DNA of 64,000 nucleotides from an uncultured Actinomycetes bacterium (GTDB taxonomy: Bacteria > Actinomycetota > Acidimicrobiia > Spongiisociales > DATADW01). The stretch spans positions 32,603-96,602 of the forward strand of contig CAVTEU010000012.1 of NCBI GenBank assembly GCA_963733905.1. Direction: 5' to 3'. Below are positions 3,371-23,059 of the stretch, one piece after another. A program made the position numbers and the translations under genes. Position 1 is the stretch's first letter; the number at the start of each line of letters is the position of its first letter. The notes below the pieces were generated by a model, which was not told where the DNA came from, ran no database searches, and worked only from the letters and a program-made list of their open reading frames with translations.

Positions 3371-4360
3371 TCAGTCGACCACGACCGTGAGGACGGTGGT
3401 CTGCACGGTCACCCCGTTCCAGCGCCATCGCCCGACAAACTTGTAGGTGCCCGGCCGGATCGAGCGGAACTGGTAGACGAACACCTTCTTCGCCCTGCCG
3501 CCCGCCGTCCTCAACGTGGGTCCATCCGGGTCCAGCGTCTCGCCATCGACGGTCAGGGCGAAGCGGGTGGCGTCTGACATGAAGATCGAGCGCTCCCCGG
3601 ACAGGTAGGGGAGCTTGTGGACGATGCCTTCGCGGACCACGTATGTCCGCCCGGCGGGGAAGTGCTCGGTCCCGGTGCACCGGGTCCGATCTGCATTGCA
3701 GCCTCCGCGGAAGCGGCCGCTCAGGCTGATCGTGGGGTAGATCAAATCGAGGTCGAGCGCTCTGGCGAGGAAGCTCGCCATCTGGGCGCGGGTTACCGGG
3801 TCCTCGGGGCAGTAGAGCGTCTCGGTGCAACCCTGGGTGATCCCGTCGGCGGCGATGGCCGCGATGGCACGGGCATGCGTGCTCCCCGGGCTCACGTCAT
3901 TGAACACCCGGCCGGGACGGCCGGCCAGTCCCTCGGCCCGGGCCAGGAAGCTGGCCATCTGGGCGCGTGTCACCGGTTCGTCCGGGCAGAAGAGCCTGGG
4001 AGTACATCCCTCGGTGATCCCTTCTTCCTCGATGGCGGCGATGGCGCCGGCGTGCGTGCTCCCCGGGGTCACGTCGTCGAACACCCGTCCTCCCCGTGTC
4101 CCCAATCGGTAGGCGCGGGCCAGGAAACTCGCCATCTGCGCCCTGGTCACCGAGAGGGTCGGGCAGTAGAGGTCCTCGGCGCAGCCCTCGGTGATCCCGG
4201 CGGCGGCGATGGCGTTGATCGCCGCCTCGTGGTAGTCGCCGTTGTCGTCCTTGAATGCCCCGCCTGTGTTGGGGAGGTCGCTCTGACCGGCTGCGGGCGG
4301 CACGGCCAGCGCCGCCACCATCGCGGCCACCACCATCGCCGCCACGAACGCCACTCTCAT
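3371..4360 (-). CDS. Secreted protein with three S-layer-homology (SLH)-type repeats and a C-terminal beta-rich domain
   Basis: Intact 329-aa ORF with signal peptide MRVAFVAAMVVAAMVAALAVPPAAG. Three ~60-aa repeats each end in GIT.GC....CP...VTRAQMASFLARA. ATG 4360 overlaps the upstream stop (ATGA 4357-4360). Confidence 0.75.
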   Translation of the reverse strand: MRVAFVAAMVVAAMVAALAVPPAAGQSDLPNTGGAFKDDNGDYHEAAINAIAAAGITEGCAEDLYCPTLSVTRAQMASFLARAYRLGTRGGRVFDDVTPGSTHAGAIAAIEEEGITEGCTPRLFCPDEPVTRAQMASFLARAEGLAGRPGRVFNDVSPGSTHARAIAAIAADGITQGCTETLYCPEDPVTRAQMASFLARALDLDLIYPTISLSGRFRGGCNADRTRCTGTEHFPAGRTYVVREGIVHKLPYLSGERSIFMSDATRFALTVDGETLDPDGPTLRTAGGRAKKVFVYQFRSIRPGTYKFVGRWRWNGVTVQTTVLTVVVD

Positions 4361-4809
4361 GGTTCCACCTCGAGGGTGGCCAGGAGCTGGTTGACCTCCT
4401 CGACCAGCGCCCTCCGGGATGCGTGGCTGCCAAGCACGACATAGAGGCAGAAGGCGCGTCCTCCTTCCGAGAAGAAGCGTTGGACACCGCTCTGCCCGGG
4501 GATGAGCCGCTGCAGCGTCGAGGTCGAGAAGTCATCCGGGTCCAGATGGTCGGGGCGGTCTGCGGCGAAGAGCGTCTGGGTCGCCGACGCCGGTTCGAAT
4601 TCGAAGAGAGAGACGAAGATGTCGTCGGAGCGCATCATCTCCACGGCTCCGCCGCCGTAGTCGCCCCGCTCGACGGGGAGTGGGAAGGTTGCGGCGTGGA
4701 GGACGGCGCGGTTGGTGCCTTCGGCTTGGGGCACGGCGCTGGTCCGGTAGACCTCCCCCTCCCACCCCGTGGGGAGGTCGATTCGGATCCGCTCGGAGTC
4801 GATCTGCAT
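4357..4809 (-). CDS. Hypothetical protein (150 aa), no signal peptide seen
   Basis: Internal ATG (4809) of ORF 4357..5259 starts MQIDSERIRIDLPTGWEGEV.., 5 nt after the stop of the upstream gene (4815). Composition is coding-like and the stop overlaps the SLH gene start. I recognise no family. Confidence 0.5.
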   Translation of the reverse strand: MQIDSERIRIDLPTGWEGEVYRTSAVPQAEGTNRAVLHAATFPLPVERGDYGGGAVEMMRSDDIFVSLFEFEPASATQTLFAADRPDHLDPDDFSTSTLQRLIPGQSGVQRFFSEGGRAFCLYVVLGSHASRRALVEEVNQLLATLEVEP

Positions 4810-4814
4810 CGCAG

Positions 4815-5396
4815 TCACCAAATCACGATCAGTGCCGTGGCGGCGAGGGCGACGATGGTGGCGATGCGGGCATATGGGGCGACCGCGGTCAGGCGGCGGT
4901 GGAGCAGCCGCAGCCCGCCGGGGTCGCTCACCCGAGACGAAGCGAGAAGGGTCGATGCCCTTGCTGCCCCGAATATCGCCCCCACCACGATTCCGGTCCG
5001 CACCGACCCGGTGAGAGCAGCCAAGACAAAGGTGGCGTAGACCGCGGCGGTCGTGACGATCGTCACCACACCGAGCCCGAGTTGGAATCCGAAGCCGGCG
5101 CCGTACACCCAGCCGCGGTAGCGGTGCAGCCAGTCGTCGTCGACCTGCCGTCTCACCCCGGGAAGACGTCTCCCCGATGCATCGAGCAGCGCGGCCGAGA
5201 GACAGACGACGACGGCCAGCCACGCCACCACCACAGGAGTGGGCGAGGCGATCGCCCAAAGCGCTGCCCCGATGGCGCCGGCGATGCCCCCGGCGACAGC
5301 GCCCCCCGCCACCGACCCGGCGATGTAGGCGGTGGTGGTGACCCAGAATCGGTTGTGTCTTGCCCGCTCACCGAGCGGGTGGATGCTGGCCAGCAT
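4815..5396 (-). CDS. Integral membrane protein (193 aa, about 5-6 TM helices), unknown family
   Basis: Intact ORF with Gly/Ala-rich hydrophobic helices (AYIAGSVAGGAVAGGIAGAIGAALWAI; VVVAWLAVVVCLSAALL; GFGFQLGLGVVTIVTTAAVYATFVLAAL). It sits between the thioredoxin-like gene and the 150-aa gene in the same operon. Confidence 0.6.
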   Translation of the reverse strand: MLASIHPLGERARHNRFWVTTTAYIAGSVAGGAVAGGIAGAIGAALWAIASPTPVVVAWLAVVVCLSAALLDASGRRLPGVRRQVDDDWLHRYRGWVYGAGFGFQLGLGVVTIVTTAAVYATFVLAALTGSVRTGIVVGAIFGAARASTLLASSRVSDPGGLRLLHRRLTAVAPYARIATIVALAATALIVIW

Positions 5397-5485
5397 CGAT
5401 TCCCCTCAGGGTGACCACGCCGAGCGGAGCCCTGCCATCAGGGCCACCAGCGACGCTCCCGCAAAAAGCATCTCGCTCATGTCGT

Positions 5486-6208
5486 TCATGTGGCATCCGC
5501 CGGCGTGTCGTCGCTCCCGGTCGGATAGAGGCTGGAGTGACCAGGTCCGATCCCGCCGGCGAGCAGGTCTCGGGTCTCCCGGTCGGCAACCGGCCCACTC
5601 GCCATCGAGCCATCGGCCCGTGCCCGTTCGAGGAGCGAGACCATCTGCCGCCAGGTGGCGGCGGCGCCCTCACCGGCGACCCGCCCCGAAGGCCCGTCAA
5701 CCAGGATGAAGTAGGGCGCCACGGGTACACGGTAGTGGTCCCAGGCTTCGCTCGACATGGCGATCGTGACACCCGTCGGGGCGAGCGCCGCCACCGTCGA
5801 CTCGCTCTCCGCCTCGGGACCTTTGGTGACGACCACCAGTCGCACCCCGGCGGGCACTCGCCTGTCTTCGCCAAATGCCTTCCAGAACCCGGCGCAGGTG
5901 ACGCAGCCGCTGGTGAGGAAAGCGAGCAGCGTCTGGCGCTCGACACCGACGACGGCCACCTTCACCGCCCCGCCCCCGGGGCGATTGCCAGAGACGTCGA
6001 CTGCGGTGGTGCCCTCGGCACGGGGCGCCGGCACCCCCGGTCTGGTCCGGAGAGGCACCGCTGCCTCACCGACGTCCTCGCTATCGCCCAGTCGGTGCAG
6101 GCTGCGCAGGATGTCTGCGTGGCTCCGCAACAGGCCGAACACCAGGACGCCGAGCACCGCGATCACCACCGCCTCGAGCACAACGAGGGTGAGCAGAGCG
6201 GTGTCCAT
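5486..6208 (-). CDS. Membrane-anchored thioredoxin-fold protein, MauD/TlpA-like (CxxC = CVTC)
   Basis: ATG 6208 overlaps the stop of the upstream gene (ATGA). N-terminal TM helix MDTALLTLVVLEAVVIAVLGVLVFGLL, then a thioredoxin-like core with LLAFLTSGCVTCAGFW and PYFILVD. Confidence 0.7.
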   Translation of the reverse strand: MDTALLTLVVLEAVVIAVLGVLVFGLLRSHADILRSLHRLGDSEDVGEAAVPLRTRPGVPAPRAEGTTAVDVSGNRPGGGAVKVAVVGVERQTLLAFLTSGCVTCAGFWKAFGEDRRVPAGVRLVVVTKGPEAESESTVAALAPTGVTIAMSSEAWDHYRVPVAPYFILVDGPSGRVAGEGAAATWRQMVSLLERARADGSMASGPVADRETRDLLAGGIGPGHSSLYPTGSDDTPADAT

Positions 6209-7545
6209 CACGAAACCCCCCAGACCAAAGGCGTTCCGTCTGATGGCCCGAAGTCGAAGGTGATCTGAGAACCCCCACCGGTGGGGGTCTGGCGCAACCG
6301 CCATGATCCCGAGTTGAAGACCCCGATCCCATCGGTCCCATCCCCGTTCCAGTCACCGACCACCGGGATCCCGGCGGAAGTGCCGAAGGTGAAGATGCGG
6401 TCGGCGGTCCCGCTGGACAGCGAGTCTCGTAGCAGCCACTCACCGTCGCGATAGAGCCCGGGAGAGTCGCCCCCGGTGTCATCCCAGTCGCCCACCACGG
6501 GTATGCCGTCGCCCCCGCCGAACTCGAATTCGATGTCGGGTGGTCCGGACTCGAGGCTTGTCCGCAGCATCCAAGATCCGCCCCGCACCACACCGGGGAG
6601 ATCTCGTCCATCTCCAAGCCAGTCGCCCACCACCGGGATGTCCCCGATGCGGCCGTATTCGAAGGCGATGTCCGGCTCGCCGTCACCCGGTTCGCTGCGG
6701 AGCAGCCAGACAAGGGCTGTGTCGGAGAGGCGGCCAAATCGGGTGCCCCTGACGATTCCCGCGGTTGCGGTCCCCGACGCCGTCCAGTCGCCCATCACGG
6801 GATGGTCGCCGATGATCCCGTATTCGAACTTCCGGTTGGCACCGCCATCGGTCAGCGAGTTGCGCAGCCGCCATGTGTTCCCGTTGACGACCGCGGGACG
6901 CGCCATCAACGGGGGAGGAGCATGCAGGCATGGTCGGTCGTGGAAGCGGGTGTTGTTGTCGGTGGCGACCGTCGTCGTGCACGAGTCGTCGATCTCCCAT
7001 GGTGGGGTGCAAGTCACCACCCGGCATACGATCGGGCCCACGCAGGCGACGTCCTGGTTGCACTGGCCATAGCGGAAGGCGGCACAGCACGCCTTGCGGT
7101 TGCCGCAGGATCCGGCGCCACAGCCGCAGTCGCACAACCCGACACAACCCGACCCGCACGATCCCGACGACCCGCACCCACAGCTGCCGCAGTTGTCGAC
7201 GTTGCAGTCGATGTAGTACCGGGGCAGATCGACGCCATCCTCGACGCAGAACCCGGAGACGTCCGCCTTCCACCACCCGGCGGCGAGCGTCCCGGGGGGG
7301 CACGAGTTGGAGCCGTAGAGAGTGCAGCAGAACTCGGTGTAGCCGTCGCAACACAGCGCCGAGCAGTCGCAGGAAGAACCGGAGCAGCTGCAGATGGCCG
7401 AATACGCCGTCACCGGCCTGAGGGCATATGCCATCGGGGCGGTTGCCAGGGCCGAACCAACTAGAGCGGCGTTCCGGAGGAAGCCGCGCCTGCTGGTCCT
7501 CGAGGCGAGGAACCGGCTGCCCGCATCAACCAGCCTGACGCTCAC
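6208..7545 (-). CDS. TAT-exported Cys-rich methylamine-dehydrogenase-light-chain (MauA)-like domain fused to FG-GAP/VCBS-like beta-propeller repeats (445 aa)
   Basis: GTG 7545 overlaps the MauE-like stop (GTGA). Twin-arginine signal SRRGFLRNAALVGSALATAPMAYA. There are 28 Cys between residues 52 and 206, including SCPPGTLAAGWWKADVSGFC and YIDCNVDNCG (compare MauA NCPPGT..ASWVASC..YRDCCG). Repeats of the form FEYG..GD.PVVGDW.GDG.D..GV follow. Uninterrupted within ORF 6208..8577. Confidence 0.7.
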   Translation of the reverse strand: MSVRLVDAGSRFLASRTSRRGFLRNAALVGSALATAPMAYALRPVTAYSAICSCSGSSCDCSALCCDGYTEFCCTLYGSNSCPPGTLAAGWWKADVSGFCVEDGVDLPRYYIDCNVDNCGSCGCGSSGSCGSGCVGLCDCGCGAGSCGNRKACCAAFRYGQCNQDVACVGPIVCRVVTCTPPWEIDDSCTTTVATDNNTRFHDRPCLHAPPPLMARPAVVNGNTWRLRNSLTDGGANRKFEYGIIGDHPVMGDWTASGTATAGIVRGTRFGRLSDTALVWLLRSEPGDGEPDIAFEYGRIGDIPVVGDWLGDGRDLPGVVRGGSWMLRTSLESGPPDIEFEFGGGDGIPVVGDWDDTGGDSPGLYRDGEWLLRDSLSSGTADRIFTFGTSAGIPVVGDWNGDGTDGIGVFNSGSWRLRQTPTGGGSQITFDFGPSDGTPLVWGVS

Positions 7546-8097
7546 CGACCAGCCCGGGCCGCGTTGAGGCGGGGGAGTTCTGTCATCGCCATCACCACTC
7601 CCGCCACCCCCATCAGGAGGAAGGCGAGGAATGGGATTCCGGCCCACGGCTGCGTGGCGACGATGTCGAGGATCCCGGATGGGGGTGAGGCGATGGCCGT
7701 CGTCAGGCACACCGCGGCGGCGACGAGATCTATGACCAGGTGCGTCATGCCGGGGGGCGCATCCTCCTGGCCGAAGCAGCCACACGAGGCCACCTGGATC
7801 CGGCCCGACATCGCTGCGGCGACGAAACCGGCAAAGACCACATAGAACCCACCGACGACCAGCGCCGCCGTCCGACCGCCGACCACAAGTGCCGCCGAGC
7901 CGGCAATCAGCTCGGCCGCTCCCATCAACCGCGCCGCTGACCGGCGCAGCTGGGACATGGAGCGCAGCCAGGGCGCCGGCGGCGGGACCCGGCCGGACCA
8001 ACTTCATCGCCCCACCCACGGCCAGCACCGCCGCGGCCAGGGCGAATGGACCGCTCAACACGCGGCGAGCATAGGCAGAGACCCCCCTGAAGGCCAT
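7542..8097 (-). CDS. MauE/DoxX-family redox-associated membrane protein; one frameshift near nt 7950
   Basis: N-terminus MAFRGVSAYARRVLSGPFALAAAVLAVGGAMKLVRPGPAAGALAAL lies in the frame of ORF 6208..8577. The rest is in ORF 7542..7958, with the SCGCFG motif and further TM helices. The start may instead be an internal GTG near 8061. Confidence 0.65.
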
Positions 8098-8106
8098 GTG
8101 ACCCAC

Positions 8107-8722
8107 ATGGCCCAGCGATCTTGCCGGGGTATCATCCAAACCCCCAGCTGGCAGGAGGATCCAATCTCCATCCCCGACGCGCTCGCGTTGGTCCGGGTGC
8201 TCCTGGTGCCGGTCATCATGTGGCTGATCAGCGCCAACGAGCGGATCGAGAACGGCTTCGGCATCGCCGCCGTCCTGTTCTTTGTGGCGGCGCTGACGGA
8301 CTTTCTCGATGGCTATTTCGCCAGGCGCTGGGGGATAACCACCGTGCTCGGTGCATTCCTCGACACCACGGCGGACAAGTTCCTCGTCAACGGGTTCCTT
8401 GCTCGCCCTGATCGCAGTCGGCCGGGCATCGATCTGGGTGACGCTCATCATCGTGCTCAGGGAGTTCGTGGTGATGGCGCTGCGAGGTCTCGCGGCCATG
8501 AGCGGGACGATGGTGAAGCCTTCCATCTGGGGAAAGCTCAAGGCGAGCATCCAGTTCCTCGCCATCCTCCTCGCCATCCTCCGGCTTCCCGAGCCGTTGG
8601 GCCGGCTCTACCTCGATGAGTGGGTCATGTGGCTGGCCGCGATCGTGACCATCGCCTCGGGGTGGCAGTACGTGGCCAGCTTCTGGTCGGTGGTGCGCGC
8701 GGTCGATACCCGGACGCCGTGA
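8107..8722 (+). CDS. pgsA: CDP-diacylglycerol--glycerol-3-phosphate 3-phosphatidyltransferase (CDP-alcohol phosphatidyltransferase); one frameshift near nt 8385
   Basis: Motif DFLDGYFARRWGITTVLGAFLDTTADK (D..DG..AR..G...D...D) in the ORF 7957..8619 frame. Continues GSLLALIAVGRASIWVTLIIVLREFVVMALRG in ORF 8351..8722. The junction is at a GGG run. Confidence 0.85.
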
Positions 8723-9736
8723 GCGACGCATCTCCGGGACCTGTCATGGTGACTGGCGCCACCGGTGTGGTGGGGGCGCCGATCCTGCGGCTTCTGGTCG
8801 AATCCGGTCGCCAGGTGGGAGCCCTCGTTCGCTCCGTCGGGTCGGCCGAGTCCGTCGAGAAAGCCGGAGCGGTGGCGGTGAACGGGGACCTGCTCAACCA
8901 TGGCTCGCTGGTCCGCGCCTTCTCCGGGTTCGAGGCGGTCTACCACGTCGGTGGGGTCAACCAGTTCTGTGTCTCGGACCCCGAAGCCATGGACGCGGCC
9001 AACATCGACGGCTCTCGCAATGTCGTCAGAGCATGCGCCGCCGCTGGCGTTCGGCGTCTGGTGTACACGTCGTCGGCCGCGGCGATCGGCGAGGAGAAGG
9101 GCACCGTCGGAGACGAGGGCTCGCCTCACCGCGGACGCTTCCTCTCCCAATACGAGAGGTCCAAGTACCTGGCCGAACAGGCAGTGTTCGCCGAGCGGAC
9201 CCCGGTCGAGGTGGTGGCGGTCAACCCGTCCTCCGTCCAGGGTCCCGGGAGGGCCAGCGGCACGGGGAAGCTCATCCTCCAGGTGATCGATGGCAAGCTC
9301 CCCGTCCTGGTGGACACGAGGGTGAGCATGGTCGACATCGACGATTGCGCCCGCGGGCATCTGCTGGCAGAGGAGAAGGGCACGCCGGGACAGCGCTACA
9401 TCCTCAGCGGTTTCACCCTCGACATCCGACAGGCGCTCGACCTCCTCGGGGAGGTCACCGGACGGCGCGCCAAGGTTCGCTTCCTCCCCGGATGGGTGGC
9501 GCTGGCCGGTGCCGGTGCCTATGGAGCGGTCTCGAGGATGATCGGCAGACACCCCAGGTTCTGTTGCGGAGATGGCGCGCACCATGCTCCACGGCCACGC
9601 CTACGACGGCACCAGGGCGACCCGAGACCTGGGTCTGGTCTACACCCCGGCGGAGGACACGCTGCGCCGCCTCTACACGTGGGCGCTCGGCCAGGGTCTC
9701 GTCGGGCCGCAACCGACGACGCCGGCACCGGCATGA
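8719..9736 (+). CDS. NAD-dependent epimerase/dehydratase (extended SDR); one frameshift near nt 9560
   Basis: GTG 8719 overlaps the pgsA stop (GTGA). Rossmann motif VTGATGVVG and catalytic YERSK. The C-terminus SVAEMARTMLHGHAYDGTRATRDLGLVYTPAEDTLRRLYTWAL is in the +1 frame and ends at TGA 9734-9736. Confidence 0.8.
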
Positions 9737-10164
9737 CCCGTTCGATCGGGCTCACCGCCGACGAGGTGAACGACTACTTCCATTCCGACTACCCATCCGC
9801 CGCCGAGTCCGGCATCCGCTGCGAGGAACTTGGTGATGGTTGGGCGGTGGCCCGCTGGACCTACAACCCGGCTCAACTCCGGCCGGGCGATTACATCAGC
9901 GGCCCGACGCAGTTCACCCTCGCCGACACAGCCATCTGGTTCGCCGTCTTCACCGAGATCGGCATCGCCCCAATGGCGGTGACCACCGATCTCTCCATCT
10001 CGTTCTTGCGACCGGCCACAGGGGCCGATCTCTTGGCCCGTGCCGACCTCGACCGGGTGGGGCGGACCCGGATGTCCGCCCGAGTGCTGCTGTGGGTGGA
10101 CGGCGCCCCCGACCGTCCCGTCTCCCATGCAATCGGCAGCTATGCCCGCCCCCAGGACCTGTGA
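9733..10164 (+). CDS. PaaI-family hotdog-fold thioesterase
   Basis: ATG 9733 overlaps the SDR stop (ATGA). MTRSIGLTADEVNDYF..GPTQFTLADTAIWFAVF..TTDLSISFLRPA..ARVLLWVDG is typical of the 4HBT/PaaI fold pattern. This is the tail of ORF 8620..10164. Confidence 0.65.
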   Translation: MTRSIGLTADEVNDYFHSDYPSAAESGIRCEELGDGWAVARWTYNPAQLRPGDYISGPTQFTLADTAIWFAVFTEIGIAPMAVTTDLSISFLRPATGADLLARADLDRVGRTRMSARVLLWVDGAPDRPVSHAIGSYARPQDL

Positions 10165-10298: not shown

Positions 10299-11309
10299 AT
10301 GGACACACTGACCCAGCCGCAAACCAACCCTTCTCGTCCCCCCTCCCGGCAACCGGTGCGCCGCCGCCGCCGGCGGGGCCGGGGGTGGGTGCTCTTCTTC
10401 CTGTTCCTGGCGGTGCTCGCCGTCTTCGCCGCTGCCGGGTACGTCTATCTCGACCAACTCGCCATGGATCGGGTTCCTGTGGACACGCTGTCGGCCGCAG
10501 GGGGACCCACCAACTACCTGATCGTCGGTTCCGACACCCGTGAGGATCTCCCCGATGATCTCGAGGGGAACTTCGGCGATTTCAGCGGCGCCCGCTCCGA
10601 CGTGATCATCCTCGCCCACGTCACCGATGGGCGGCGGCAGCTGCTCAGCCTGCCGCGCGACCTCAAGGTCGACATCCCCGGTGAAGGCACCAACCGGATA
10701 AACGCCGCCTATGCCTTCGGCGGTCCTGAGCTGCTCACCGAGACGGTGGTCGACGCCACCGGTGTTCCTGTCCACCACTATCTCGAGGTCGACTTCGGTG
10801 GGTTCGCATCGATCATCGATGCCGTCGGTGGGATCGAGCTCGACATCCCGTACCCGGCCCGCGATCTCAAGTCCGGTCTCGAGATAGATGCGGGCAAGCA
10901 GACCGTGGATGGCGCAACCGCCCTCGCTTACGCCCGGTCGCGACAGTACGAGGAACTCCGCGATGGAGAGTGGGTCTCTCAGGGTGGCGGCGACCCGGGG
11001 AGGACGTCGCGCCAGCGCGAGGTGATGCTCCAGGTGCTGGCCAAGGTGGGCAGCCCAGCGGTTCTCGTTCGCACCCCCGGGCTGGTCACCGCCGTGTCCT
11101 CCAACCTCACCGCCGACGAGGGCCTCTCGCTTTGGGATCTGCTCCGGACCGGTGTGGGGATGCGGTTTGCCGGCGAGACCGACACCGTCGCCCTGCCCGT
11201 GGTCAGCGCACCGGAAAACGGCGTCGCCTACGTGGCACGTGACGAGCCCGAGGCGAGCGACATGATCGACGCCTTCCTCGACGGCCGCCCCCTGGAGACC
11301 GAGGAGTAG
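10299..11309 (+). CDS. LytR-CpsA-Psr (LCP) family cell-wall glycopolymer transferase
   Basis: Intact 336-aa ORF. Arg-rich cytoplasmic tail plus TM ([27 protein letters not shown]). LCP core NYLIVGSDTRE..RSDVIILAHV..LLSLPRDL..INAAYAFGGPELL..HHYLEVDFGGF..ALAYARSR. Confidence 0.9.
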   Translation: MDTLTQPQTNPSRPPSRQPVRRRRRRGRGWVLFFLFLAVLAVFAAAGYVYLDQLAMDRVPVDTLSAAGGPTNYLIVGSDTREDLPDDLEGNFGDFSGARSDVIILAHVTDGRRQLLSLPRDLKVDIPGEGTNRINAAYAFGGPELLTETVVDATGVPVHHYLEVDFGGFASIIDAVGGIELDIPYPARDLKSGLEIDAGKQTVDGATALAYARSRQYEELRDGEWVSQGGGDPGRTSRQREVMLQVLAKVGSPAVLVRTPGLVTAVSSNLTADEGLSLWDLLRTGVGMRFAGETDTVALPVVSAPENGVAYVARDEPEASDMIDAFLDGRPLETEE

Positions 11310-22951: not shown

Positions 22952-23034
22952 GCCCGGGTGTCGGAATTGGTAGACGAGGGGCTCTTAAACAGCTCTGCTC
23001 TCCGAGCGTGTGGGTTCGAATCCCACCCCGGGCA
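22952..23034 (+). tRNA. tRNA-Leu (anticodon UAA), long variable arm
   Basis: GCCCGGG acceptor pairs with CCCGGGC. D arm has AATTGGTAGA. Anticodon stem GGGCT/AGCTC with loop CTTAAAC (TAA). Variable arm TGCTCTCCGAGCGT. T arm GTGGG-TTCGAAT-CCCAC. Discriminator A. CCA is not encoded. Confidence 0.9.
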
Positions 23035-23059
23035 CGCTCCAATAGCTCGGCGACGCCGG

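Follow-up and report, generated by a model that had tools for sequence, protein, structure and literature searches.

Six genes on the minus strand of a 64-kb window, by which we mean the whole 64,000-nucleotide stretch of contig CAVTEU010000012.1 that was analysed (G+C ~68%), probably make up a conserved operon of the Acidimicrobiia that produces, folds and displays one disulfide-rich surface protein and that includes a new selenoprotein family. The genes lie between positions 3371 and 8097 and encode, in their direction of reading, a MauE-like membrane protein, an exported cysteine-rich protein of 445 amino acids (aa), a membrane-anchored thioredoxin-like protein, a MauF homologue, a 150-aa protein and a secreted protein with three SLH domains (Table 1). 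An earlier note on this DNA had described six co-directional genes here and had suggested a dedicated system for disulfide maturation and surface display; all six open reading frames (ORFs) were located at the coordinates it gave, and its suggestion is supported as the best reading of the cluster. Public sources label all of the genes 'hypothetical'.

When one genome per species was scanned, relatives of the 445-aa protein turned up in at least 583 species genomes, and among the matches listed nearly all are labelled Acidimicrobiia or relatives. Gene presence was counted at 52 loci with adequate flanks, and the counts bear out the supposition that MauE-like and thioredoxin-like genes accompany homologues of the 445-aa protein (Table 1). 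The genes flanking the cluster vary between loci. At two distant loci (L086, 3477-8160, and L087, 67-4359) the order itself is different, running MauE, thioredoxin, (193-aa ORF), 150-aa and Cys-rich, with all members confirmed by profile; in these loci LGFP, CWB2 or DUF4214, and not a propeller, is the fusion partner of the Cys-rich domain. Dozens of species-level genomes share this gene set while their flanks are unrelated, and chance falls far short of explaining such an arrangement. On the strength of the presence counts and of the set conserved in the rearranged loci, we take the functional unit to be four core genes (MauE-like, 445-aa, thioredoxin-like and 150-aa) with two accessory ones (MauF-like and SLH), so that the six-gene unit proposed previously is real in this window, whereas across species two of its members are accessory.

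Within the cluster the genes appear to be translationally coupled through overlapping start and stop codons. The GTGA at the junction of the MauE-like and 445-aa genes (7542-7545), the ATGA at the junction of the 150-aa and SLH genes (4357-4360) and the gap of 5 nucleotides (nt) between the 193-aa and 150-aa ORFs (4810-4814) all agree with the sequence. The ATGA that had been given for the 445-aa/thioredoxin junction (6207-6210) was a misreading of GTGATG, in which the stop codon TGA (6210-6208) and the ATG (6208-6206) overlap by 1 nt or, if the GTG at 6211-6209 is taken as the start, as GTGA. The 89 nt between the stop codon of the thioredoxin-like gene (5486) and the ATG of the 193-aa ORF (5396), which the earlier note overlooked, are coding. 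Promoter and terminator scans of the cluster were uninformative.

The Cys-rich gene stays with the MauE, thioredoxin and 150-aa genes in nearly all loci, the association survives both rearrangement of the gene order and exchange of the C-terminal domain, and the overlapping codons couple the genes in translation. These observations make it rather unlikely, if still worth bearing in mind, that the MauE-like, thioredoxin-like and MauF-like proteins form a general disulfide system to which the 445-aa protein is a mere neighbour and one client of many. In favour of such a system, MauE has been argued to be a generalist (preprint 10.64898/2026.03.05.709764), and neither DsbB nor VKOR was noticed among the genes of the window, in which no systematic search for them was made; a further point against it is the leader of the substrate, of a type seen elsewhere on MauA, which is the established client of MauE, MauD and MauF.

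The main point that had been missed concerns the 193-aa ORF. The stretch upstream of it encodes MNDMSEMLFAGASLVALMAGLRSAWSP, and the frame is continuous from this upstream ORF through a TGA codon (5408-5406) and codons for Gly-Glu-Ser into the annotated ATG of the 193-aa ORF. For this reason the gene is read as 5489..4815, with its true start at ATG 5489-5487, which lies 93 nt upstream of the 193-aa ATG and overlaps the stop codon of the thioredoxin-like gene as ATGA. Profiles were compared with twelve Methylobacterium proteins of a canonical mau cluster; MauF has no curated model. A profile of 47 MauF-like sequences matched Methylobacterium MauF with 49.7 bits (E 2e-16) over MauF residues 88-243, and BLASTP alone gave E 3e-4. 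The 193-aa ORF also touches the Pfam family DsbD_2, and the repaired protein, with U written as C, exceeds the cut-offs of both DsbD_TM (PF02683, 29.1 versus 27.1) and DsbD_2 (PF13386, 27.4 versus 24.9) in matches that begin at profile positions 3-6. A profile of the repaired family found no match among PDB sequences, and NCBIfam, the TsoB model included, gave the repaired protein only a chance-level DsbD match. In the joint alignment of the MauF-like family with canonical MauF the motif W-S-P-C/U-G is invariant; Methylobacterium MauF reads LLSTWSPCGYSSLCLLRPVGR, and its Cys86 (WSPCG) aligns with the UGA. To judge from these profiles and alignments, the protein described previously as a polytopic membrane protein of 193 aa is a MauF homologue in the DsbD/CcdA superfamily; the ORF does exist, but its start is 93 nt further upstream and its kinship with MauF had been missed.

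The UGA is conserved. All 49 loci of a motif scan, which include the window and the loci L082 and L046, have TGA at this position, without a single TAA or TAG, and in every case it stands in frame within the invariant motif R[SA]xWSP-TGA-GES[MV]L; the same arrangement is present at the distant locus L086, outside the 49. The upstream mini-ORF is confined to loci with the 193-aa ORF and is present in almost all of these. One orthologue (L020:2930-3060) has TGC at the UGA position in an uninterrupted ORF that reads ESP-C-TQSMVSSLHPLGER, and is a natural Cys form of the gene.

Two tandem hairpins, candidate bacterial selenocysteine insertion sequences (SECIS), lie directly 3' of the UGA. Of the cells in the hairpin pairs, 99.6% are paired over 44 species, CG-to-UA covariation is seen at two pairs, and RNAalifold recovers the same two helices. 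The codons within the stems are frozen (Ser TCG in 44/44, Ser AGC in 43/44, Pro CCG in 44/44 and Arg CGG in 43/44), while every synonymous codon occurs for these amino acids in the immediate neighbourhood of the stems, and for the loop glycine. L086 keeps both hairpins with a different sequence in the second stem, and the Cys form L020 has neither. Single-sequence folding z-scores were not significant (-0.5 to -1.8), and the case for the hairpins is made by the comparative data. Their shape differs from that of the E. coli fdhF SECIS model.

Genes for selenocysteine (Sec) insertion were found beside the cluster at one locus. In L073, from a metagenome-assembled genome of the Microthrixaceae (L073:3225-7382), the stretch directly upstream of the MauE-like gene carries selD, selA, selB and tRNA-Sec, and each of the three protein-coding genes scores above its NCBIfam equivalog cut-off; among the 84 related loci, no other has sel genes in its flanks. 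Complete Sec machinery has been reported in another order of the Acidimicrobiia (2026 preprint). The MauF-like family is presented here as a predicted selenoprotein family.

The competing reading of the UGA is that it is an ordinary stop, so that a membrane peptide of ~27 aa and the 193-aa protein would be made separately, coupled by termination and re-initiation, with the hairpins serving this coupling or mRNA stability. It has on its side an ATG (GTG in one species) three codons past the UGA in every locus, at which the public gene calls begin. These three 'intergenic' codons, however, are invariant as Gly-Glu-Ser with third positions free at Gly, and the codon is never TAA or TAG in the motif-scan loci; its counterpart is a Cys both in MauF and in L020, and L020 has lost the hairpins and reads as one unbroken ORF. 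Only the joined protein, moreover, reaches the start of the DsbD_TM and DsbD_2 profiles, and a complete sel locus adjoins the cluster in L073. We regard an ordinary stop as the least probable of all the alternatives weighed in this work, and read the codon as Sec in what follows.

The MauE-like protein is, on the family profile, a true member of the MauE family, as its name in the earlier note implied. The 138-aa ORF scores 35.1 bits on PF07291 (cut-off 27), and deletion of nt 7940 gives a 184-aa protein with 46.7 bits; the motif SCGCFG, with the CGC-FG of the family, is invariant across 74 orthologues. MauE proteins carrying a CXC motif followed by Phe-Gly substitute for DsbB in E. coli, and MauA is absent from most MauE-bearing species (preprint 10.64898/2026.03.05.709764). 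A Lys in helix 1 and a Glu in helix 2 are conserved in MauE, and the window protein has both, as seen by eye in the sequences of its first and second membrane helices. The candidate ATG of the gene (8097, minus) and that of a divergent phosphatidyltransferase gene (8107, plus) stand only 9 nt apart (8095-8109), which means that the true starts lie further inside the genes or that both transcripts are leaderless. One database entry (P0049, 626 aa) is a single protein with a MauE domain followed by the Cys-rich protein, and could be a real fusion or a miscall across the GTGA overlap.

In the orthologues of the thioredoxin-like protein, which has one membrane anchor, the motif GC..C..FW and the cis-Pro motif PYF are invariant. 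Its sole match in Pfam and NCBIfam is the MauD model TIGR02661, and a profile of 79 orthologues finds Methylobacterium MauD with E 1.9e-8; anchor, CxxC and cis-Pro are common to the two proteins. It is closest to MauD, but weakly so: the description as a MauD-like CxxC thioredoxin holds for the anchor, the CxxC pair and the best match, while the score of 24.7 bits is far under the equivalog cut-off of 188.6.

MauB, MauG, amicyanin, MauJ, MauM and MauN, searched for with Methylobacterium queries, gave no tblastn match at E<=0.01 in the window or in the 84 related loci. The absence of the first three from the window had been pointed out before and thus extends to the relatives, and the cluster is for this reason not a methylamine dehydrogenase cluster.

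The putative substrate of these proteins is the 445-aa protein, whose prediction as an exported protein with a twin-arginine translocation (TAT) signal is upheld: the TAT-signal model TIGR01409 scores 17.0 against a cut-off of 16.7, and is the sole family match of the protein in the Pfam and NCBIfam searches. The mature protein has 28 cysteines, all of them N-terminal to residue 211, and its C-terminal half has none. In the family of the N-terminal domain, represented by 149 clusters, 17 cysteines are conserved together with the motifs GWW, RY.DC and FRYGQC; the GWW is invariant in an alignment of 28 sequences and present in >=90% across the 149 clusters. The more than 2274 homologues of the protein are all nameless or 'hypothetical'. 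Relatives with this N-domain range from 187 to 1137 aa, and several have CWB2, LGFP or DUF4214 in place of the propeller, which suggests that the 445-aa protein is wall-associated.

The full-length AlphaFold model of the protein (predicted local distance difference test, pLDDT, 83) has a C-terminal beta-propeller, and Foldseek with this model returned propeller matches only, among them integrin alpha (alphaIIb) and the Psathyrella lectin (PVL), with E values of 1e-3 to 1e-2. Four clear G..GD.PV.GDW repeats are present, with a GDWNGDG.D loop, and four to five blades are evident. The Pfam FG-GAP/VCBS families have no match in the window protein or in its C-terminal 230 aa, and PF13517 matches in one homologue. 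The propeller-type repeats inferred previously are thus upheld by the predicted structure but not by these profiles. A binding or adhesin-like role is the most likely one for the mature protein.

The cysteines of the N-domain could instead be metal ligands, in a metallothionein-like or Cu/Zn-binding wall protein that the redox proteins keep reduced. Runs such as CGSCGCGSSGSCGSGC have this appearance, but conservation within the domain is lowest in the Gly/Ser/Cys-rich stretch, and the conserved cysteines are spread over the predicted folded core. Likewise, genes for the copper-handling proteins CopD (PF05425) and a DUF1775/YcnI-type protein lie at 254-2069, just past the SLH gene on the opposite strand, but they do not adjoin the cluster in other species. 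An earlier study, as cited in the MauE preprint, suggested that MauE may be a reductase; in the only direct experiments it is an oxidase (preprint 10.64898/2026.03.05.709764). Taken together, metal binding seems to us quite improbable, and disulfide formation is the preferred fate of these cysteines.

A second question is whether the N-domain is related to MauA, methylamine dehydrogenase's small subunit, as had been claimed for residues ~50-210. Neither PF02975 nor TIGR02659 matches the 445-aa protein, even at permissive thresholds (Pfam or NCBIfam, E<=10 or E<=0.1). Searches of the PDB sequences with phmmer and with a 28-sequence profile returned no match at all, although light chains of methylamine and aromatic amine dehydrogenases are numerous there. 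Foldseek, run with an AlphaFold model made for the N-domain by itself (pLDDT 75), found nothing significant; a pre-methylamine dehydrogenase light chain came at rank 3 with E 5.3 over 41 columns. Alignment of the mature N-domain with mature MauA by hhalign gave a probability of 4-5% and P ~0.01, with 3/200 column permutations equally good, and a four-fold enlargement of the family to 119-136 sequences did not raise this signal. The profile match of residues 50-210 to the MauA family, which the earlier note had itself named as its test, is therefore lacking, and their membership in the family is not supported. The full-length family, on the other hand, matches MauA with a probability of 96.6% and E 4.8e-10, and because splitting the alignment places the signal in the leader peptides (probability 97%, score 49.1, residues 3-27 against MauA residues 8-32), this match is driven by the leader. 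Single MauA leaders scored 22.7-43.1 against the leader profile of the 445-aa family and 11 generic TAT leaders, used as controls, scored 11.3-22.8; by these scores the leader likeness to MauA clearly exceeds the twin-arginine consensus. The motif 'C..DG..CC.G..CPPGT' is also common to the 445-aa protein and MauA. The Cys-rich domain is therefore best described, at the level of these comparisons, as not assignable to the MauA family, and 'MauA-like' as a term that fits the leader type and the short motif but not the mature domain.

These results also bear on the idea that the Cys-rich domain is a true quinoprotein, that is, a cell-surface redox enzyme with a cofactor of the tryptophan tryptophylquinone (TTQ) or cysteine tryptophylquinone type on the GWW, in which an oxidase of a kind not yet recognised replaces MauG and the homologues of MauE, MauD and MauF serve cofactor as well as disulfide maturation, as they do for methylamine dehydrogenase. 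W92 of the conserved GWW aligns with MauA Trp57, which is the quinone-bearing Trp and, with Trp108, one of the two TTQ tryptophans. The hhalign alignments in question are weak and of low confidence, however, and none reaches the region of Trp108, so that nothing is aligned to the second half of MauA. The shared leader and CPPGT motif and the co-occurrence of three accessory families of the small subunit fit the idea; the low mature-domain likeness, the lack of a match to a MauA family model or of a close structural neighbour, and the missing MauG, MauB and amicyanin do not, and no other oxidase is conserved in the cluster. We consider a quinoprotein very unlikely. A shade less probable again is its particular form in which the GWW tryptophans would form a TTQ-like cross-linked quinone without MauG, the Sec-containing MauF homologue and MauE supplying the redox chemistry of MauG; the operon as a whole would in that case amount to a minimal, self-contained apparatus that matures both the quinone cofactor and the disulfides, which is held to be just as doubtful.

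Table 1. Coordinates of the genes and other features of the cluster, with gene presence at the well-flanked loci
Feature	Position	Strand	Loci with gene	Remarks
MauE-like membrane protein, predicted DsbB-like disulfide generator	7542..8097	minus	49/52	ORF 7542-7958 plus frameshifted N-terminal part to ~8097; CGC motif 7776-7784; start 8097 uncertain
445-aa exported Cys-rich protein	6208..7545	minus		TAT leader, Cys-rich N-domain, C-terminal beta-propeller
Twin-arginine RR of 445-aa leader	7486-7491	minus		
Cys-rich N-domain of 445-aa protein	~6916-7383	minus		26/28 mature-protein cysteines
Invariant GWW of 445-aa protein	7270-7278	minus		
C-terminal beta-propeller of 445-aa protein	6211-6900	minus		0 cysteines; four clear repeats
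Membrane-anchored thioredoxin-fold protein, MauD-like	5486..6208	minus	51/52	CxxC (CVTC) at 5894-5905
MauF-like protein (DsbD/CcdA superfamily), predicted selenoprotein	4815..5489	minus		224 codons; Sec = codon 28
193-aa ORF	4815-5396	minus	34/52	truncated reading of the MauF-like gene 4815..5489
In-frame UGA, predicted Sec	5406..5408	minus		motif WSP-U-GES
Two tandem hairpins, candidate bacterial SECIS	5363..5397	minus		directly 3' of UGA
Hairpin 1	5382-5397	minus		GAUGCU-GGCC-AGCAUC
Hairpin 2	5363-5379	minus		CCCGCUC-GGU-GAGCGGG
150-aa core protein	4357..4809	minus	51/52	no signal peptide or membrane segment by eye
Secreted triple-SLH protein	3371..4360	minus	23/52	~120-aa uncharacterised C-terminal domain; lineage-specific sixth gene

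The 150-aa protein has no significant match in Pfam, NCBIfam or the PDB and resembles neither MauJ nor another Mau protein; homologues of it, more than 4670 and ~152 aa long, are all nameless or 'hypothetical', and the gene is retained where the gene order is rearranged. The SLH protein was correctly recognised as a secreted protein with three SLH domains, for Pfam SLH (PF00395) has three matches in it (E 4.5e-22, 78.2 bits against a cut-off of 20.8). Its C-terminal domain has no Pfam match, and the two halves of the protein always occur together. Attachment of the product to the wall, and any contact between the SLH protein and the propeller, are putative. A gene of the LytR-CpsA-Psr (LCP) family, of the kind that attaches wall polymers, lies at 10299-11309, ~2 kb upstream of the cluster.

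The disulfide reading of the operon can be put together as follows. After export of the 445-aa protein, the substrate, its cysteines would be oxidised by the MauD-like thioredoxin, which MauE, as a quinone-linked oxidase, would re-oxidise through its CGC loop, passing the electrons to the quinone pool in the manner of DsbB and DsbA. The MauF-like protein, with its Sec (or Cys in some species), may act as a membrane thiol/selenol relay that, like CcdA or DsbD, brings cytoplasmic reducing power to correct wrong disulfides. The shared leader could be a tag that couples MauA-type substrates to the machinery, and the SLH protein, or the fused CWB2 or LGFP domains in the relatives, would hold the product on the cell wall.

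Several points weigh against this scheme. TAT normally exports folded proteins, which is a poor fit with folding after export, MauA being the precedent for such a case. The N-terminus of the thioredoxin-like protein (6130-6208) has no positive charge before the anchor and several after it (LLRSHADILRSLHR), as does canonical MauD, and because the N-terminus at the anchor is without positive charge, the side of the membrane that the thioredoxin domain faces must be called uncertain on charge grounds. The direction of electron flow (oxidase or reductase) and the membrane topology assigned to the thioredoxin and to the MauF-like protein are putative. The MauF-like gene is missing from one third of the loci and is thus not essential to the system, and its product has only the first position (U or C) conserved, with no conserved second Cys among the 47 orthologues, whereas CcdA and DsbD have two redox residues, one in each half of the protein. 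Sec genes and tRNA-Sec are absent from the 64-kb window. The leader comparison used control leaders that came from distant bacteria, and that the cytoplasmic 150-aa protein might bind the leader is a guess.

The frameshift in the MauE-like gene calls for comment. The contig of locus L082 is ~95% identical to the window in DNA, and the two are for this reason probably of the same species. What shifts the frame is one additional T at nt 7940 by comparison with L082, where the gene reads through. Decay of the gene was considered and rejected, the close relative being intact at this site. L082 in turn has several frameshifts within the 445-aa gene, and its protein is only 49% identical to that of the window by tblastn; these frameshifts explain the low identity, and hypervariability of the 445-aa gene between strains was likewise rejected. 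Single-base frameshifts are many in the window and its closest relatives (window 7940, 8107-8722 and 8620-10164; L082:8001-9343), examples being a CDP-alcohol phosphatidyltransferase gene broken in two and an ORF in which an epimerase continues into a 4HBT thioesterase. The frameshifts fall in different genes in L082 than in the window, and the closest relatives belong to one metagenome series with contig names that suggest long-read assembly. On both counts the frameshifts are most simply assembly errors and do not suggest gene decay or pseudogenes. An Rfam scan of the 64-kb window found one tRNA and nothing else; this sole tRNA gene is a tRNA-Leu (anticodon taa, 22952-23035).

MauF, MauE and MauD have stood since the 1990s as required yet mechanistically unexplained genes of methylamine dehydrogenase clusters. 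MauE was first tied to disulfide formation in a 2026 preprint (10.64898/2026.03.05.709764). Here the three families occur away from methylamine metabolism, beside a different Cys-rich client with the same kind of leader, which argues for a portable module that folds disulfide-rich exported proteins. Cys86 of MauF is in turn marked by the Sec/Cys pair as its likely catalytic redox residue, and MauF itself is assigned to the DsbD/CcdA superfamily, so that its function becomes directly testable, with Cys86 as the target for mutagenesis in Paracoccus or Methylobacterium. The MauF-like proteins would be a new family of membrane selenoproteins, absent from a 2026 review of the prokaryotic selenoproteome, whose table of families has no MauF-type or CcdA-type entry; gene callers truncate the gene in hundreds of Acidimicrobiia genomes. 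The client itself is a widespread, uncharacterised surface protein of a lineage abundant in soil and water.

Compared with known systems, the cluster combines features of several. SLH, CWB2 and LGFP wall proteins of monoderms have their counterparts in the triple-SLH protein of the operon and in the CWB2 and LGFP domains of the Cys-rich relatives. The propeller matches those of the FG-GAP, integrin-alpha and PVL type in fold and differs from them in having no Pfam FG-GAP/VCBS match and only four to five evident blades. Selenoprotein thiol oxidoreductases (DsbA-like, DsbG-like, UGC-type TlpA and the rhodanese/DsbD fusion TsoB) likewise have Sec in place of a redox Cys, Cys homologues, and a hairpin directly after the UGA, whereas the motif WSP-U-G in a polytopic membrane protein of the MauF type sets the present family apart from known selenoprotein families.

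With the DsbB-DsbA and DsbD-DsbC pathways (and CcdA-ResA/CcmG) the cluster shares a quinone-linked membrane protein with a Cys pair and a CxxC thioredoxin partner, and with DsbD in particular a membrane protein of the DsbD_TM/DsbD_2 families with its redox residue in an 'SP-C/U' motif. MauE is unrelated to DsbB in sequence, however, and here one thioredoxin-fold protein would serve both arms, the sole redox residue of the DsbD-like protein is Sec, and the system is encoded with one substrate to which it is apparently dedicated. As in the mau cluster mauFBEDACJGMN, homologues of MauE, MauF and MauD adjoin a Cys-rich exported protein with a MauA-type leader and motif. The Acidimicrobiia cluster differs from it in being without MauB, MauG, amicyanin, MauJ, MauM and MauN and in a Cys-rich domain that is not PF02975 and has a beta-propeller fused to it, replaced in the relatives by wall-binding domains. 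Unlike canonical MauF, its MauF homologue is without the first ~60 residues and carries Sec, the 150-aa and SLH proteins are added to the set, and the host belongs to a class of the Actinomycetota and not to the Proteobacteria.

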